Assembly (NCBI GenBank): GCA_951406725.2
Contig: OX597816.1
Span: 123,442,001 to 123,506,000, forward strand
Length of the DNA: 64,000 bases
Direction of reading: 5' to 3'
Source of the DNA: Octopus vulgaris
Lineage: Eukaryota
Shown here: in pieces, positions 1-63,642 of the stretch
Position numbering within the stretch: position 1 is the stretch's first letter
Layout: each line of letters opens with the position of its first letter
Made by a program: the position numbers and the translations under genes
The notes under the pieces: model-generated
What the model saw: only the letters and a program-made list of their open reading frames with translations
The model's database searches: none
What the model was told of the DNA's origin: nothing

Positions 1-1626
1 TTTGGTGTACCAGATATAATTGTCTCTGATAACAGAAGACAGTTTGTATCCTGTGAGTTTAAAAGATTCTGCGAGATGTTATATAAAACTATAGCAATGT
101 ATCACCCTAGATTGAATGGAAGTGCTGAACGGTTCATGGACACTTTTAAAAAAGCTTTAAAGAAAGCTAATAAGAAAGCCACGGATGAGGTCATGATACA
201 ACAATTCTTAAGGATATACAGGGTAACTCTTGTGGCAGGCTGGATAAAATATGTGATATCAGGTCGATATGATGTAGCCCACTACCAAATGTAGGAGTAA
301 TATTTAAAGGTTCTCACGTCGGAGTAACTAGTGAACATCGAAGAATCAACAACAAGAAGGAAGAAATATTATTTACATACATTTATTCATATGCCTGACA
401 GGTAATTAAAGAGATACAGCAGCAATTCTAGTGATAGTGCCAACAAGGTTGGCTTGCTGGATAGTAGTTGATAGTGTAAAACAAGGTTGTCTGTCAGTAG
501 AGAGTGAAAGAGTAAGGAATGCACGGTGCTGACTAGAAAGGATAAAAATGACATTATCTTTCTTGTGGCCAAGCTAAAGGTGAAGGGAAGTGTTGCTCTT
601 GGTCATGGATGACACAGAAGAGCAAGTTTCTCCTTGGTCTGCTGATACAAAAAAGAGGAAGAGATAGGAAGTGTTCTCTGTTATAAAGACTATGGTCAGT
701 AATGTAGGCCAAACTCTGAACATAGGACTGACCTTTCCTTGACCAGCACAGGTCCTAGGGCATCAAGTGTTTCCTCATTAATCATCTAGTGTGGAGAGGA
801 TTTCCCACTCACTTTAACAAGCAACAAGTGGGTGGATTTGGTTCCAAATATCAGGCAAGGTCAAGCTAGATCCTTACACTCCAAACCCCAAATGCATCAG
901 AAGGAAGTTCACCAGCAGAATCAATGGTTGCCAGAAAGGTGAAGTCAGTATTCGATAAACCACTACCAGGGAAGAAAAAATATGTGGTAACAAAGACATG
1001 CCAAAATTCTTTAGAATAGGTGATAAGGTATATGTAAGAATGAACAAAAATGACAAGCAATACTGGGAAGAAGGAGAAATTGTAACATACATAGGAAGAA
1101 TGATACATGGCCTAAGAAGCAGAAATGGAATGGAAAGAAGATATAGAAATCAGCTTAAGGAAAGAGTCATAGAAAAGAACCAACAAGAGTAGAAATACCA
1201 ATGGATTGGCTATGTGACACTTCAGATTCCAACACCATTACAAGAAGTTGAAACCATATATACAAGGGAAAGGAAGAACACTGGATTCCTAAAAGACCCT
1301 AAGAAGAAAAGATATTGAAAATATATATATATAAAAAAAAGGAGGTGGGGAGAATAAAAGAAATTGATTGTTAATAAAAAATGAAAAGGGGAGTTGTTGT
1401 TTAGTGAAACTGTGCATCCTTTCCAGTAAGAAGTGGTAGTAGCCAGCCATTATAAATTGACCAGTAGCTGGTCAACAGGGAGACAGTTGTGAAAGTTGAG
1501 TATACATGTAGACTGTGTTGATAGTCATATCTGTGCTGATATAATAATTATACTGTGATACTGAGTGGACATTATACTGATCCAACCTTTGGAGGATAAT
1601 AACACTGTACGACTGGAGGTCATACA
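1..1626 (+). mobile_element. Ty3/Gypsy LTR retrotransposon remnant (integrase C-terminus, PPT, probable 3' LTR 1395-1626)
   Basis: Frame 1 reads FGVPDIIVSDNRRQFVSCEFKRFC...YHPRLNGSAERFMDTFKKAL (rve). It resumes at ~879 (PNASEGSSPAESMVARKVKSVFD; FRIGDKVYVR...W..G). Purine tract gaaaaggggag precedes TGT at 1395; ends ACA at 1626. Confidence 0.85.
231..878 (-). mobile_element. Solo-LTR-like insertion inside the Gypsy integrase
   Basis: 648 bp with TG...CA termini, flanked by CTCT (227-230) and CTCC (879-882). It splits the integrase motif YRVT|P; AATAAA lies on the minus strand near 385. Confidence 0.7.
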
Positions 1627-14268: not shown

Positions 14269-15676
14269 ATGTGCAATTTTTTCTATTTAGATTATAATCC
14301 CTCTTTATTCATTACTTTAAATTGTGAGAAAATAACAGTTAAATATAAAACATTTAACATTATTCTATACAGAGGAATCAGCTGTTAAGTATTTCTTTCG
14401 GGCATCTTGTTGTATACAGTCTTGAAAAAAAAGAATCAATTAATCAATTAATTCTGAATAGCCTCATGGATAGACACTTTCATAGTATTTAATTTTCAGT
14501 ATGTACAATGACACTAATGTCTAATCTGATACACTTTAAAGTTTTATGTGTTTGATATAGAAACCAATGACAAAACAGAAATAGCACCATTAAAATATCT
14601 TGGATAGTCTTAAACTTCCAATATATTTATAGGCATGGAAATGTGTGAGCTAACCTAGAGTACTAATTTTGCTTAATGGAGAATGTTGCTTTATACCTCC
14701 ATGTTGAAGATGGACTAAACACTGACAATGAACTTCAATGTAACTCTGTGTTAAAAGATATTAACAAGACCAAACTTATTCAAATTCATTATTTATATTA
14801 ATGCCAGGAAAGCAAACCTTGATGCATTGTAAACAATCTACAATCTAACCAAATTCTAACCAAGACAATTAACAATCTCTACGTTCATGAGAGTAAAGTG
14901 AGTGTCATGTCAGAAGAAACACAACTTAGTGATATGATAAATGTAGATTGATAAAATATATACCAGACAGAAATACATACTGTGGTTTATATTATTAATT
15001 AAAACTTTAGAAGGCAGTGTCCAAAAATGGCTACAATCCAATGATTGAAACCAATAATAGAGAAAAAGGTTAAAAAGGAAAGGTAACTTACTACAGAAAG
15101 TTATACTTAGTTAATGAAAAAGATAGAAGAAATTGTTGGGAGCTTATCCATGATTTATTCATAAAAAGCACAAAACATTCCAGCAATTTTTTGCCAGTTT
15201 AATATCCACTTTACCATGCTTGTATACCTCAGACGAAATTCCTTGAGACAGATTTTTTGTAGTTAGATGACCTCCTCTTACCAACTCTCACTTGCTTCAA
15301 AGCAAGATATTTCTCCATGGTTGAATATATCTTCACAGAAAATTGAAAATGACAGCCACCACTTGTGATGTTCATTTATAATGATCACATGATGTCAAGG
15401 CAAGGAAACACAAATGCTGAAATAGGCATACATCCAAAAGTTCAGCCACACAAACACTCATAAATATATGATGAGCTACTTTCAATTTCCCTTTACCAAA
15501 TCTACTCACAAGACTTTGTTGGTCAATGGCTATAACAAAAGACATGTCCTTGTATGTTTGAGAAACAAACCTCTTAACTATGCAGCTATATCTACACCTA
15601 TCACAATCAGACCTGTACCTATTGTTATCATTTTTATGATCAATAATATAAATGCATTGTTTATTTTCTCTTCTAG

Positions 15677-15817
15677 GAAACAAAATTTTGTTGACACAAT
15701 GTTTAAAATGCTAGAAAAATATTCAACAGATTTAGAAGACATTGTACGAGAAAGAACAATGCAACTGGAAGAGGAGAAAAAGAAAACTGATGAACTTTTA
15801 TACCGAATGTTACCATC
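15677..15817 (+). CDS. Receptor guanylyl cyclase, internal exon: dimerisation/signalling helix
   Basis: [46 protein letters not shown](S) is the typical receptor-GC coiled coil. Acceptor ttttctcttctag, donor TC|GTAAGT; 141 nt, phase 2/2, in frame with both neighbours. Confidence 0.95.
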
Positions 15818-16149
15818 GTAAGTAATCTACTCTGCTACTAAGATTTGTCTTTCTTATATTGAATATATAAATGTAATGAAGGTTGTGTCAATAGGTTTGC
15901 TGGACGACCTGCTGAGATGCTAGTGGTTTTATATCCTGCCACTGGCAATGTGTTGTGTTTATAGCCAAGATGCATAACTCTCAAATTTACCAATAGTCTG
16001 TCTAAATATAAAGAGGAACAATTTAACATTCTAAGCATAATTCTTAAGTTTGCAATATTGAAATGAACTTTTCTCCAGACTGAGACTGCTGTGTAGATGG
16101 ACATTAGTAAAGCTATTCACCATTCATGGACATCTCTGATCATATATTT

Positions 16150-19099: not shown

Positions 19100-19129
19100 A
19101 CTAAAGCATTGTTGTAATGAGGTGAGGCC

Positions 19130-20000
19130 CTATTAAAGATATTCAAGTTAGTTCAGAGTTTAGATATCTGTTTACAAATGCCTGAAACCAAATCTCTAAT
19201 TATAGCGGGTGGAGGGGTGAACACTTGTGGATATATACCGTTTCTTCATTGGGTTTCCTGTAGGGGTAGTATTTGCCTGTGTTCAGATGTAAGGTAACAT
19301 CCAAGAAATTGATCATCGTCAGGTTGGTAGTAACCGTTATGGACAGGCCAAATTCTTTGAATATTGTTATTGAGTCCTGCCTGAACTTGTCCATGGTGTG
19401 GCTATTCATATAGTGTATGATAATCAGGCCATCGTTGCTATAGAGGGCTGACCTATGTGGATGGGTACATCTCTTGAGGGGATCCAAAATGTATAACCTG
19501 ACGAGGTTGGCGATTTCAGCCCTGTCAAAGCTCCCCATAGAGACATAAAAAAAATGGATCACCTTCTTTCTTTACCCAGAAGGAATCATCATGGATCAGA
19601 ATTGACTTTATTGCATTCATGATGATTCTCATATAAAGCTCACTGATGCTGGTAAATTGTCCAGCAAAACTAGAGCCTTTAGGAGGAGAGGTTTAGATAT
19701 GGAAGGGTAGAAGCCAACAATGTTGAACTGGGTGAATTTGTAGGATGATGTATTCTTGATACTACAGAACCACTTTATTACAGTTGTGCTGGAGTTCCAT
19801 TGAGTCAACCCTGTAGCCCTTCTGATTTCAGAGTTGATAGTACTGAGAATATGCTTGCTATTGATACTTATCTCACTTTTAGAAGGGTTGATCAGCCTGC
19901 ATTTGGGGTTGGAATGGAAATTAGGCTTATGGTACTTAAGTGTAATATTGAAGGTGGGGGTTATGTGGTGAGGTGGTACATGCAATCCTCTGTCTTAAGG
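19130..20000 (-). mobile_element. Penelope-like element reverse transcriptase remnant
   Basis: KCRLINPSKSEI...FNIVGFYPSISKPLL...MGSFDRAEIANLV...LYSNDGL...NFLDVTLHLNTGKYYPYRKPN: PLE-type RT motifs, frameshifted, with YxDD decayed. Confidence 0.85.
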
Positions 20001-30425: not shown

Positions 30426-30689
30426 ATATATATATATATATATATATTATCCGAATATTTTCCTGATTTATGGACTCTCAGACGACCCATGCGAAAATAG
30501 TTCTTGTATTTTGACAATGAGAAAGTGCATTATATTTTATGCAATACTTAACTGAAGCTACTAGATGATAGGATGATTACACTGGATAAGTATGTAATAA
30601 GAGTATATCCTGAAATACAAACACATCTACACATGCTTATGTACATAATATACTTGCAGACATACATATATGTACATACATACTTGTAC

Positions 30690-30721
<32 letters not shown>

Positions 30722-30728
30722 ATATATA

Positions 30729-31268
30729 TAACTTAGAATAACTTATAAAAGTTTTGGCCAGTATTGGCCCAGGCCATGTCTAACTTAATAGCACCACCTG
30801 GTGAAGTCTTTCAGTTCAGGATTTGGGCACCAAGGCCCATTCGAGCAGAGAGTTATTGTTTGCGGAGACATATCCGGGTGTGGGTGGTTTGTCCGGTACT
30901 GTTTGAAGGAATTTGTCCAAAGACTTCTTGAATTTTGTGTGGTCAGTTTCTTTTTTGACGTGTCCTGGTGTAATGTTGAAGAGAGCGGGTCCAATTGAGG
31001 TGAAATAGTTGTGCCATATTGTCGTTATGTGATGCGATTTAGATTTTTGTTGTGGACTGATGGCACGTGGTCCAAGCCTTGGATGTATTTTGAAGGTGAT
31101 GCCAACATCATTCGGACAGTGCTGATGGAATATTTTCCACATCATACAGATAATGTAGCGTTCATGGCATTGTTGGAGTGAATACAATTTCAGCTTCTCT
31201 AGTCTACCCTAGTAGTCAAGGTCTGACATGCCATCTATCTTTTTTGTGATTGACCTTTGGGGAGCTTC
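30729..31268 (-). mobile_element. CR1/L2-group LINE, 5'-truncated copy
   Basis: Near-identical reverse complement of 42073-42613 (YSLQ..ERYIICMMWKI...LLEWALVPKS), flanked by (TA)n. Confidence 0.9.
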
Positions 31269-31379
31269 ATATATATATATATGTATATATATGTATATAT
31301 ATATGTTTATATATATGTGTATATATATATATGTATACATATATACATATATATACATATATATATATGTATATAAAAG

Positions 31380-41489: not shown

Positions 41490-41536
41490 GTATATATATA
41501 TATGTATGTATATATATATATATATGTATATATATA
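41090..41536. repeat. (TA)n/(TATG)n microsatellite
   Basis: Direct inspection; continues at 42614-42899 beyond the LINE. Confidence 0.95.
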
Positions 41537-42613
41537 GTCAGCAGTGGTGTCCCACAAGGCACTGTGTTGGGCCCACTTCTCTTCATCATCTACATAAATG
41601 ATATTACTGACACCATCAAACACAGTAACATCAGAACCTTCGCTGATGATTCCAAGCTCCAGAAGGTCATCAATGGCGTGGATGACCGAATAAACCTTCA
41701 GTCAGACCTACTGGCTGTTGTCCAATGGGCGGAAAAGAATAACATGTTGCTAAATGAAGACAAATTTGAACTGATCCACTTTGGAAGGGAGGACGCTCTG
41801 AAACTCCCATACTCTCTTCCTTCTGGAGAAATTCTCATGGCATCCAACAACATCAGAGACCTGGGAGTAACAGTGGACAACAACATAAGCTGGGCTACAC
41901 ATATAAGCAGTAAAGTTGACATGGCCCGCAGAATGTGTTCCTGGATTCTCAGAACCTTCCAGTCGAAGATTCCCACGCTATTATCCTTCTCTTCTCCACT
42001 TTTGCCCGACCCCACCTTGAATACTGCTGTCCACTGTGGTCTCCCTACACAAAACAAAATATTATGAGAATTGAAGGTCCCCAAAGGTCAATCACAAAAA
42101 AGATAGATGGCATGTCAGACATTGACTACTGGGGTAGACTAGAGAAGCTGAAATTGTATTCACTCCAACGACGCCGTGAACGCTACATTATCTGTATGAT
42201 GTGGAAAATATTCCACCAGCACTGTCCGAATGATGTTGGCATCACCTTCAAAATGCATCCAAGGCTCGGACCACGTGCCATCCGTCCACAACAAAAATCT
42301 AAATCGCATCACATAACGACAATACGGCACAACTATTTCACCTCAATTGGACCTGTTCTCTTCAACATTACACCAGGGCACGTCAAAAAAGAAACTGACC
42401 ACACAAAATTCAAGAAGTCTTTGGACAAATTCCTTCAAACAGTACCGGACAAACCACCCACACCCGGATATGTCTCCGCAAACAATAACTCTCTGCTCGA
42501 ATGGGCCTTGGTGCCCAAATCCTGAACTGAAAGACTTCGCCAGGTGGTGCTATTAAGTTAGACATGGCCTGGACCAATACTGGCCAAAACCTTTCTAAGT
42601 TATTCTAAGTTAT
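41537..42613 (+). mobile_element. CR1/L2-group LINE, 5'-truncated, RT C-terminal half with one frameshift (~41965)
   Basis: [20 protein letters not shown]...FADDSKL...LQSDL...RDLGVTVD; second frame [13 protein letters not shown]...LYSLQRRRER; stop at 42525; short UTR and TTCTAAGTTA repeat tail. Confidence 0.95.
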
Positions 42614-46189: not shown

Positions 46190-46935
46190 AAGTACTTATG
46201 TTGACATGAGATCAAATACCCAGAGATATTGTTAATCAATAATTCTTTTATTCTTTCATAGTATGTTAAGGGTTTCCTTAATGCATAATTTGCAAACTTT
46301 TGTATTATATGGAATGGATTCACTAATAGACCATTTTAAAAAGTATTCATTATTACTATTTTTTAATTTATTGATATAAATGGCCAGGGCTGTTTTAGTT
46401 TTAGATTCCTTATTTATGAACGAGTTTAAATGCGACCTATACCTGACTTTGAAATCAATAGTACTCCCTATATAAACTTTCTTAGGGTCCTTTAAGGTGC
46501 TTACTTTGCATTCATATACAACGTTTCTATGTAGACACTGACCATTTAAAGGAATGGTGTTTCAGGATTGGCAGGTGCATCTTTTATCCCTGGAACAATC
46601 ATTTTCCTTATTATACCCAGCTATACTAACTCTATTATTAACCATATTTCACAATTTAAATCTATTATTCATTGCTATAATCGACCCCAAATTTGGCATC
46701 GTAGAATAAGATAATTTCAAAGATGATCTATTAAATATAGGAAGATACTTATGTTCTAAGGGGATGTTCTTATCAATTAAGCTAAAACAACATCTTAGGA
46801 GTTTCCTAAGATGGAAGGGAAATAGAGTGGTAAACCAGATTATATCCGGTTTTTGAGATGTTTTACAACCAGATTGTCTGCTCAAGTTTGGGTTCTCTGT
46901 GATCTTATAGTTCAAATGATAGCTATTCCTATTAT
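46190..46935 (-). mobile_element. Penelope-like element linker + GIY-YIG endonuclease remnant
   Basis: IIWFTTLF...IFNRSSLKLSYSTMPNLGSII...PLNGQCLHRNVVYECKV...YIGSTIDFKVRYRSH. Confidence 0.8.
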
Positions 46936-47752: not shown

Positions 47753-47814
47753 TATGACTAATATAAATAATGTAAGTAATATATGTGTATGTGTGTGCAT
47801 GTATATGTATGAAG

Positions 47815-48425
47815 TTGCATGGCTCAGTGGCTAGAGTGTCAGGCTCACAATCATGGGGCAGTGATTTCGATTCCTGGACCAGACTATGTGTTGTGTTCTT
47901 GAGTAAGACATTTTATTTCACGTTGCTCCAGTTCACTCAGCTGTAGAAATGACGTCACTGATGCCAAGCTGTATCAGCCTTTTCTTTTCTCTTGGATAAT
48001 ATCGGTTGCATGGAAAGGGGAGGCTGGTATGCATGAGCTACTGCTCATAAAACATCCTTCCCTGACTTGTGCCTTGGAGGGTAACTTTCGAGGTGTAATA
48101 TGCCCATGGGCATATGGCGTAGTGGTTAAGAACATGGGCTGCTAACCCCAAGATTCCGAGTTCGATTCCAGACAGTGACCTGAATAATAATAATAATAAT
48201 AATAATAACAACAACAACATTGAAAAATACCTTAGGAACGAGAACCCAGGTTTGAAATTTCCCCAAGACACCTGATGAAGGCTGGAGGGTATATCAGCCG
48301 AAAAATTGTGTGAACAACAAACAAGATGAGGACAAATATCTGTCAAATGTACATAATTCCTCATCTCTTAAATATAGAACTGTGTAATCATGTTGTCATT
48401 CATGACTGAAAGGGTTTTTTACCCC
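47815..48425 (+). mobile_element. tRNA-derived SINE family C, interrupted by the H3 element
   Basis: Head GCATGGCTCAGTGGCTAGAG; body to 48099; tail resumes at 48382 (gtcattcatgactgaaaggg). Confidence 0.8.
48100..48381 (+). mobile_element. H3 element: tRNA-like head + (AAT)n + hammerhead motif (48268-48311), 7-bp TSD
   Basis: A box TGGCGTAGTGG 48115-48125; B box GAGTTCGATTCC 48158-48169; ACAC-CTGATGA-A-GGCTG...CAGCC-GAAA-AA-TT-GTGT; GTGTAAT at 48093-48099 and 48382-48388. Confidence 0.8.
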
Positions 48426-48499
48426 ATATACATATAGTAATACATGCACACACACACACATTATAATGGAATAGTTAGTATAAAGCATTATGTTGAATA

Positions 48500-48869
48500 T
48501 ATTATATAAAATTCATGGGTGAGGCCGGAACAATGTGAAATAAATCCAAGGCATATCACAAGAAAACCGGCATATGAATTGATAGTGACTTACCCTACAT
48601 TCAGTATTTTATGATTATGACCCCCACTTCAGGAATTAGCAAATGTTGCAAATGTAACAACCCTCCTCAGGAAATAGCGAATGTTGCAGATGTGACATTT
48701 GCTAATTCCAGAGGAGGATTACATTTGCTAATTCCGGAAGAGTGGGGTCATAACCCTGAAATATTGAATGCAGGGTAAGTCACCATCAATTTATATGCCG
48801 GTTTTCTTGTGATATGCCTTGGATTTATTTCACATTGTTTCAGCCTTACCCACGAATTTTATATAATAT
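48500..48869. mobile_element. Palindromic MITE with ~150-bp inverted arms
   Basis: tattatataaaattcatgggtgagg...gaaataaatccaaggcatatcacaagaaaaccggcata is mirrored at 48790-48869; internal GGAATTAGCAAATGT repeats. Confidence 0.85.
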
Positions 48870-62092: not shown

Positions 62093-62444
62093 CACACACA
62101 CATGTTTGTGTGAGAGAGAAGAAAAGAGAGAGAGTTGAAGAGTGATAAGGAGGACAATGGATTGGGTTGAGCAAGAGGAGTTTCAAGGCTACCCCATTTG
62201 AAATATGAGTGAGTGAGGGTGTATGAAGTGGTGCAAGAAAAAGAGATAAAAATGATATTTAGCAAAGAGTCAGAGCATACACCTTAAGGCGTTGAGCATA
62301 TGTTCTGGCTCTTTGTCCAAGGAGATGAATAGAAAGTGGTGACAGAAGGATCAGGGAGCATAAGTAAGAGTTGTAAGAGTGTATGTGTTGTGTGGGAAGA
62401 GAATGAATAATAGATAAAATGGAAGCCGTCAATGATAAATAGAT

Positions 62445-63010
62445 GAAGGTAGTCAGTATCTATTAAGCATCAACTACCCCAAAAACATACTATCCACTCC
62501 AATTATGAAGAAAAGAGAGGATGAAACCAATAAACTGTCCACAGTCTGTCTACCCTATGTGAAAGGCCTCTCCGAAAAGTTACAAAAGATATGTGGCCTA
62601 TATGACATCAGGACAGTATTCAAGAGTAATACAATACTTCACAAATATCTCCTTTGAGTAAAACCATCAATAGAAGAGAATATGATCAAAGACTACGTGT
62701 ACTCCATCTCATAAAGTAATGGTAGGTTATACAAAGGCGAAACATGCTATCCCTTCAAAATAAGGGTAGACAAATATCGCACAGCTGTGACGTGAAGAGA
62801 TATTGATAAATCGGGTAGAGCTGATCATGTGTGGAAACATGGAGATCACATCTCTCTGTGGGATGAAGTTAAAATAATAGACAAACACTAATGGAAAATA
62901 CGAAAACTAAAGGATGCAGCACGTATGCTAGGACACAACAACCTCCTAAGCAGACCGAGTGCAGATATGAGCAGCATATGGGAACTGGTATTAAGGAAGG
63001 ATAGGAAAAT
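62445..63010 (+). mobile_element. Penelope-like element 3' ORF remnant (GIY-YIG endonuclease)
   Basis: VCLPYVKGLSEKLQKICGLYDIRTVFK...YVYSIS...LYKGETCYPFKIRVDKY...KSGRADHVWKHGDH...WDEVKIIDK: Penelope/Poseidon-type; several stops. Confidence 0.88.
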
Positions 63011-63045
63011 ATTATATTTATAAGCCCTAAAATTCACTCCGTAAT

Positions 63046-63315
63046 TGCCCACGGGCATATGGCGTAATGGTTAAGAGCATAGGCTACTATCCCCAAGATT
63101 CCGAGTTCAATTCCAAGCAGTGGCCTGAATAATAATAATAACAATAATATTAATAATAATAATAATAACATCAAAAAATACCTTAGGAATGAGAACCCAG
63201 TTTCGAAATTGCCCCAAGACACCTGATGAAGGCTGGAGGGTATATCAGCTGAAACGTTGTGTTAACACAAACAGGATGAGGACAAATATCCGTCAAATGT
63301 AAATAATGTAAATAT
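63046..63315 (+). mobile_element. H3 element (tRNA-like head + hammerhead) forming the probable pseudo-LTR of the adjacent PLE
   Basis: Close copy of 48100-48360, starting ~35 bp after the end of the GIY-YIG homology. Confidence 0.8.
63218..63263 (+). ncRNA. Minimal type I hammerhead ribozyme motif (family H3, intact core)
   Basis: GACAC-CTGATGA-A-GGCTG(gagggtatat)CAGCT-GAAA-CG-TT-GTGTT: canonical CUGAUGA and GAAA, UH = UU, palindromic AACGTT stem III. Confidence 0.8.
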
Positions 63316-63642
63316 TTCACTAGTATACTTTATTTTTAAGGTCTGAAAACATTCTAGTTCAAGTCTACCTTTGTTATAATGACAATTTGTGCAATCATTC
63401 CTGTTAATATCATTCAGATACTTTCATCTCCCATGGCAATGTACATATTTTTGAACAGCTGATGAGGATATAGGTGTGATACCTTCCAGACGGATATAGC
63501 ACAATTAACATTTTTATCACAATGTGTATGATTAGTGGCTCCCTTATCTCTCTTGTTGACCAAATAATTTGTAGTTGTCTTGTGTTCTTTCTTGGTGAGA
63601 TTTGATGTGTTTCAAGAGAAGCTATTTTTCCTATCAATACTC

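Follow-up and report, generated by a model that had tools for sequence, protein, structure and literature searches.

A 282-base insert that splits an older SINE in Octopus vulgaris is almost certainly the pseudo-LTR (pLTR) of an autonomous Penelope/Poseidon-type retrotransposon (PLE). The insert lies in the window, the whole 64,000-nucleotide stretch of DNA analysed here. The pLTR unit, composed in order of a tRNA-like head, an (AAT)n tract, an ATG, a hammerhead and a tail, sits downstream of the ORF stop; tandem copies also have it before the ORF and in frame with it. New here are a pile-up of 5' ends at the head and a consensus of the coding PLE that is free of TTTT. We tentatively propose an autonomous coding retrotransposon that would be wholly transcribed by Pol III, with every terminator purged from its 2.5-kb frame and its RNA translated without a cap, and of which the SINE-like units would be by-products.

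Insertion site and anatomy of the element

The host SINE at 47813-48425 (+) carries a different tRNA-like head and is interrupted by the insert, which is flanked by GTGTAAT at 48093-48099 (+) on the left and 48382-48388 (+) on the right. Because GTGTAAT is single at the empty site in five other host-SINE copies, the pair is a true target-site duplication (TSD), and the 282-bp insertion with its own 7-bp TSD described in an earlier, sequence-only reading of this DNA is confirmed. The first G of the right GTGTAAT may be the element's own last base; a G directly follows the element end in 81 of 88 copies. A 5' leader or fold-back stub, which is the putative transcription start region, precedes the head at 48100-48107 (+; family positions -6 to 0) and, like the target site, contains CCCATGG. 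In the family numbering, u1 is the first base of the tRNA-like head (window 48108) and the unit ends at u280; the 5' end of the window copy falls at u-6/-7.

The tRNA-derived head occupies 48108-48182 (+), with decayed stems and retained boxes: an A box at 48115-48125 (+) and a B box at 48160-48168 (+), located by an A- and B-box pattern scan. Both boxes, 45 bases apart, and the (AAT)n tract lie where the sequence-only reading had placed them. A+B pairs number three in the window (split-SINE insert, second PLE copy and one host-type SINE head) and zero in 60 simulated windows. Read from the family consensus, the boxes are perfect and likewise 45 bases apart, while the acceptor stem retains 2/7 pairs and the T stem 3/5. 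The head is closest to tRNA-Arg (Arg-TCG z=8.0, Arg-TCT z=7.0, Ala z=6.9, others lower) within a set of 10 host tRNA sequences that lacks Arg-ACG and in which Ala is nearly level with Arg. The anticodon-like arm reported earlier is present, but its loop CTGCTAA is a variant of the window copy (the family has CTACTAA), the arm has only 3 pairs, and ARAGORN finds no tRNA. Rfam, the check suggested for the hammerhead, matches neither tRNA nor hammerhead at the gathering threshold over the whole window or by E-value over 47800-48700. The head forms no cloverleaf and folds no better than shuffled sequences, so a structural stall there is unlikely.

Downstream of the head, a (AAT)8(AAC)4 spacer at 48183-48218 (+) forms part of the 5' leader and varies in length between copies. 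The whole (AAT)n(AAC)n leader, which precedes the ATG (48183-48237, +), is a site of expansions and nested insertions in many copies, and resembles the CAA-rich translation enhancers of viruses. The family's in-frame ATG corresponds to 48238-48240 (+), where the window copy has ACG; the frame stays open through hammerhead and tail, and the last 150 bases of the unit code for the ORF N-terminus. Within the ORF start, a second B-box-like/T-arm-like motif with a 5-bp hairpin (48241-48262, +; u131-152) may be left over from a previous head.

The minimal type I hammerhead at 48267-48312 (+) is built from stem I (48267-71/48308-12), CTGATGA (48272-78), stem II (48280-85/48294-99) and GAAA (48300-03), with a predicted cut after 48307. 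Its core with a 5-bp stem II (48272-48303) occurs in none of 60 simulated windows, and N17 is U. The family consensus has all features of the minimal type I class of Cervera and de la Pena 2014, namely the core, an extra base after position 9, G10.1-C11.1 and a palindromic 15.2-16.2; the window copy does not. Since the palindromic GAAA-CG-TT of the family has become GAAA-AA-TT through mutation of 48304-05, the window copy lacks the pair-forming positions 15.2/16.2 (palindromic dimer pairs). The earlier assignment of a minimal hammerhead thus stands for the core and the family, not for the pairing of this copy. GAAACGTT is kept in 74/205 copies and both core boxes in 49/205. The family ribozyme may be active; minimal hammerheads cleave poorly (PMC4209133).

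At the inner pLTR 3' end, a 9-base motif (48336-48355, +; u233-256) is present in one to three copies, always with the reading frame kept. The PLE tail (48358-48381, +; about 25-33 bases) belongs to the direct arm only, codes for the ORF N-terminus and has a sharp 3' end without poly(A); in 30/30 best copies this end is sharp, non-repetitive and without poly(A). TTTT is absent between head and ribozyme, as first noted, and from the entire insert; the next T run lies downstream at 48415-48420. A second window copy (62437-63318), 91% identical to consensus positions -618..258, consists of the last ~600 bases of the ORF (62437-63023, +; the GIY-YIG end, broken by stops, with the ORF stop at 63021-63023) followed by head, (AAT)n and a hammerhead that keeps GAAA-CG-TT (63053-63318, +); the tail is absent.

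The head follows the ORF end in 29/30 loci, the 30th (L115) being rearranged. The sequence-only reading was right about Penelope machinery. From its ATG, the single consensus ORF encodes 835 aa with a YVDD-bearing RT plus, at the C-terminus, a GIY-YIG-like motif. Pfam matches RVT_1 on a real copy (E=5.5e-10); two C-terminal ORF fragments have no Pfam match, GIY-YIG being recognised as a motif, and homologues carry PF00078/PF26215, 2/120 of them also PF01541. One full-length copy (L271) was recovered, and the tandem junction occurs in at least 10 distinct loci. Many copies are preceded by an inverted partial copy without the last 25-30 bases: an inverted arm was assigned in 64/88 insertions, with inverted arms beginning at u244-256 and direct arms at u280-283. 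This pLTR-plus-tail pattern is known for PLEs (PMC8557442).

The family is large, with 2633 candidates at first look, 3023 candidates for the ORF stretch of the second copy, and 5134 exact genome-wide occurrences of the last 23 bases of the unit (control 0). Its copies differ from the consensus by a median of 4.6% (120 alignments), so extinction of the family is possible. Near-identical sequence is present in sequencing runs of five organisms, with no RNA run among the matches listed. Three loci fetched in a search for other Poseidon families in the host genome belong to this same family. A quick tree, whose set holds no named Poseidon or Penelope reference, places it apart from two families that we take to be Neptune-like from their motifs, and groups it with barnacle and other proteins. 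In relatives P0007 and P0173 the hammerhead motif is translated in the same frame, and their alignment extends through the tail. Those at 60-72% protein identity (the P0020 cluster, P0001-P0030) include a barnacle, and the spread of relatives may hint at horizontal transfer among marine invertebrates.

Truncation at the tRNA-like head

The distribution of 5' ends was read from 88 insertions (88 direct arms, with inverted arms assigned in 64), the first 88 of 100 listed places out of 5134, all on C1, selected with the exact tail as sole criterion; in the first 30 loci the flank was limited to 1.5 kb. Sixty-seven arms extend at least to u22; the ends of 51 of them fall from u-19 to u22 (binomial p=4e-30), and 16/67 continue past the head. 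Elsewhere, arm loss per 40 bases is 8-21% downstream and 0-15% upstream to u-800 (background about 12%), the 21% bin containing the AAT tract, in which an interruption of the arm was scored as its end. Exact 20-mers number 5148 genome-wide at u30-49, inside the head, versus 865 at about u-32..-13, upstream of it. Truncation is non-random and concentrated at the head. The earlier concern that solo copies might be only truncated PLE ends is right insofar as they are PLE ends, but their truncation is heaped at one place.

Given internal RT priming, we read the pile-up as run-off at the RNA 5' end. It marks where transcription starts, not which polymerase is used. Run-off cDNA pile-ups offer a genome-only way of mapping PLE start sites. 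The RNA ends predicted from the letters, near 48108 and 48307, agree with a probable Pol III start near 48102-48108 and the predicted cleavage after 48307.

In the mechanism that we propose, Pol III would start at the head and, with no TTTT terminator, transcribe all 2.66 kb of the unit, the coding frame included. The RT would prime within uncleaved RNA, at two sites in the first 125-155 bases of the ORF, by analogy with Poseidon of Anolis in vitro. Priming near the 5' end would run off at the RNA 5' end and yield solo units such as the window insert, which would be one such run-off copy, now dead, its ribozyme mutated; ORF-bearing copies would come from priming in the downstream repeat. Inverted arms would form from two cDNAs joined head to head, or by fold-back on the 5-bp hairpin at the start. 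Of the readings considered we prefer, at close to even odds, a tRNA-Arg-like Pol III promoter that was captured and drives the coding PLE, with solo units as its run-off cDNAs. Translation of the uncapped RNA would not need a cap; as in R2, the A-rich leader or the ribozyme may help. Ribozyme-linked initiation has been reported for viral type I hammerheads (PMC13725137).

Polymerase and competing explanations

The consensus coding strand contains 0 TTTT in 2664 bases. Expected counts are 2.9 with the element's own codons permuted (P=0.029), 4.5 with Phe codons freed (P=0.003) and 4.8 by base composition (P=0.006); a dinucleotide Markov null gives 2.6 (P=0.075) and a trinucleotide one 1.6 (P=0.195). 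Control ORFs contain 5 and 16 TTTT (two other host PLE families) and 12, 8 and 8 (Poseidon-like metagenome ORFs), or 2.3-7.4 per kb; two short LINE fragments have one each, and none of these controls falls below its own null. Real copies carry 0.41 TTTT per kb, with no shared site above 4/40. GGGG is likewise absent, though only 1.0 is expected, and the low Phe content (2.0-2.5%) is common to the closest relatives. The TTTT deficit is moderate and based on one family. Among host tRNA genes, 13/16 have a T4+ run within 40 bases.

The head is probably a working Pol III promoter, and that Pol III would also make the coding RNA is plausible to a near-even degree. RNA-seq gives no support for Pol III use: across three runs, depth tracks the copy-number gradient, is similar on both mate directions (0-18 per direction over the ORF 5' half), and no heaping of starts or ends at the head or the ribozyme is listed, such reads having been proposed earlier as a check; these libraries are of the long-RNA type, in which short or non-polyadenylated/Pol III RNAs are invisible.

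Duties may instead be split between polymerases, a possible but rather unlikely arrangement in which the Pol III head makes most RNA templates and the protein comes from Pol II transcripts, through host read-through or an upstream start. Such a division would explain the pile-up, the solo units (as a SINE mode built into the element) and the box conservation without translation of uncapped RNA, and it accommodates both the arms that pass the head and RNA-seq that resembles passive read-through. Head-passing arms, however, are also expected from downstream-repeat priming on a Pol III transcript, and the absence of TTTT from the 2.5-kb ORF is left unexplained.

A SINE head captured into the pLTR might also be a mere passenger, at which a Pol II internal promoter happens to start, with the lack of TTTT a by-product of an A-rich, low-Phe ORF. 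Known PLEs do have Pol II-type internal pLTR promoters (PMC2377424; Chlamys, PMC8557442), and the Markov nulls weaken the TTTT result; yet the start lies within a few bases of the tRNA +1 region, and a motif scan finds no DPE, Inr or TATA near it, which leaves this explanation unlikely. The tail contains a GT..AG stretch of 38+9n bases that may be an intron; Pol II would then be implied, and a passenger head favoured. This candidate is weakened, since no such joint is among the 15 listed, with 239 more beyond the listing, and the residues within the stretch align with P0007 and P0173. Eight metagenome loci, several of them partial, contain no tRNA box pair.

The ends themselves bear on whether a longer or circular RNA gave rise to the pile-up through processing or template switching, by hairpin fold-back of cDNA or a nuclease acting at the tRNA-like part. 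Thirty-two head-ending arms were classified, 21 as plain and 11 as folding back on the 5-bp hairpin, with 19 more not anchorable. Plain, non-palindromic ends fall mostly at u-6..u8, and 13/15 short copies aligned over -8/-7 have no native bases there. The fold-back junctions would suit this origin, as would the head start, which is the exact RNase P cut position of a tRNA, but 21/32 arms are not palindromic, a similar 5-bp hairpin at u131-142 gives only 14% per 40 bases, and acceptor stem and cloverleaf are both absent; we regard it as very unlikely.

Solo and ORF-linked heads share the same consensus at u1-76 (86 vs 57 copies), with no diagnostic position in the head to separate them. TSDs of at least 7 bases flank 31/88 insertions (one is a TA repeat; shuffled pairs give a mean of 1.4 and a maximum of 7) and occur at every truncation length, contrary to the possibility raised earlier that solo copies lack them. 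Because the heads are identical in consensus and TSDs occur at all truncation lengths, neither TSD nor sequence supports a separate SINE, and a separate SINE subfamily was rejected. Among 209 head matches in the fetched loci and the window, the 7 below 84% identity were inspected: 6 belong to the PLE family and the seventh matches another SINE weakly at the B box, leaving a head on another body unsupported among them.

The hybrid first proposed from the letters, an independent, self-processing, non-autonomous Pol III SINE/retrozyme moved in trans by Penelope proteins, is scarcely credible. Solo units are the commonest form, many with TSDs, and some of them, with boxes kept, could be transcribed, but the unit forms the end of an autonomous coding PLE, in frame with its ORF, solo and ORF-linked heads do not differ, copies run across the ribozyme site uncut, the 88 insertions hold no hammerhead monomer arrays (two partial direct copies at most), and solo units fall about 20 bases short of the counterpart of the 172-nt ORF stretch required by Anolis Poseidon. 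With tRNA-derived SINEs the unit has in common a 5' tRNA-derived head with A and B boxes, but it belongs whole to a coding element and ends sharply (30/30) with neither poly(A) nor a simple-repeat tail; the non-coding tandem hammerhead-monomer arrays of non-LTR retrozymes are absent from the 88 insertions.

Known systems and neighbouring features

Octopus tRNA-derived SINEs named OK, OR1 and OR2, tRNA-Arg-related short repeats, were reportedly described by Ohshima and Okada in 1994. The octopus pLTR unit may be one of them. R2 is co-transcribed by Pol I. It uses the rDNA promoter and an HDV ribozyme, whereas the octopus PLE would have a hammerhead and a tRNA-type promoter of its own. Ribozyme-bearing non-LTR elements, R2 among them (PMC6765202, PMC13725137), are like the octopus PLE in a coding RNA that would be capless and whose translation would be linked to a 5' ribozyme.

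Poseidon of Anolis carolinensis (PAc, PMC11167929) resembles the octopus PLE in its single RT plus C-terminal GIY-YIG ORF overlapping a minimal hammerhead, in two internal 3' ends that define the tail, in tandem and inverted pLTRs, and in AT-rich targets. The PAc ORF starts inside the hammerhead, and its RT primes at two internal tail-defining sites on uncleaved RNA (PMC11167929); the octopus ATG lies 34 bases before the hammerhead core, and the octopus pLTR begins with a tRNA-like head, whereas no promoter of tRNA or Pol III type is reported for PAc. The Penelope element of Drosophila virilis (PMC2377424) likewise has a promoter within the pLTR and an internal start site, but that promoter is LINE-like and TATA-less with a DPE, and the element has a 75-nt intron; no such motif was found in the octopus PLE.

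Short repeats offer a second set of parallels. Sm-alpha and Sj-alpha of schistosomes (PMC6765202) combine a Pol III-type promoter and then a hammerhead in one short repeat, as does the octopus unit; they are non-coding SINE-like tandem repeats with a canonical ribozyme, whereas the octopus unit is a coding PLE end with a minimal one. Cassandra, Helenus and Ajax (PMC10886601) carry a small-RNA-derived Pol III promoter in the terminal repeat, but are non-autonomous LTR elements, and the octopus PLE encodes its own RT and endonuclease. Pol III ordinarily serves to make short non-coding RNAs. The usual division assigns coding retroelements to Pol II and SINEs to Pol III (PMC10886601). No PLE with a tRNA-type promoter and no Pol III-run coding retroelement was found in the parts of the openly available literature covered, repeat databases and subscription papers being outside its scope. 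A 2026 preprint ties retrozymes to PLE pLTRs, with no match for Pol III, promoter or molluscs in the portion covered (10.64898/2026.07.22.740005). Likewise, the text and one supplement of a 2026 octopus repeat paper, its sequence library being outside this scope, have no match for hammerhead or pLTR (PMC13282606). If wholly Pol III-transcribed, the element would be a natural example of a Pol III-made mRNA, would give poorly active PLE hammerheads a testable role in cap-independent translation, and would provide a route from PLE ends to Sm-alpha-like tRNA-head plus hammerhead repeats. Thousands of such PLE termini are likely annotated as SINEs.

Elsewhere in the window, an exon of a guanylate-cyclase-type gene lies at 15426-15821 (+; Pfam HNOBA, E=5.6e-6), and the window repeats may lie in introns of this gene. 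Two LINE 3' fragments, 92% identical and with an RVT_1 match, occupy 41500-42525 (+) and 30615-31269 (-). Decayed Neptune-like PLE fragments lie at 19100-20000 (-) and 46200-46900 (-); as partners of the insert, these (19.2-20.0 and 46.2-46.9 kb) were dropped as a different family. Related host families look young because their frames are open (>700 aa) and their copies 98-99% alike. Outside the window, seven tRNA-Cys-like genes cluster in 3 kb (L216, G000:C12:25267077-25270148). In one Neptune-like family, a hammerhead-like CTGAAGA...GAAA lies ~150 bases before the open frame (L241 near 2088, G000:C4:75251500-75258000, and sister loci).
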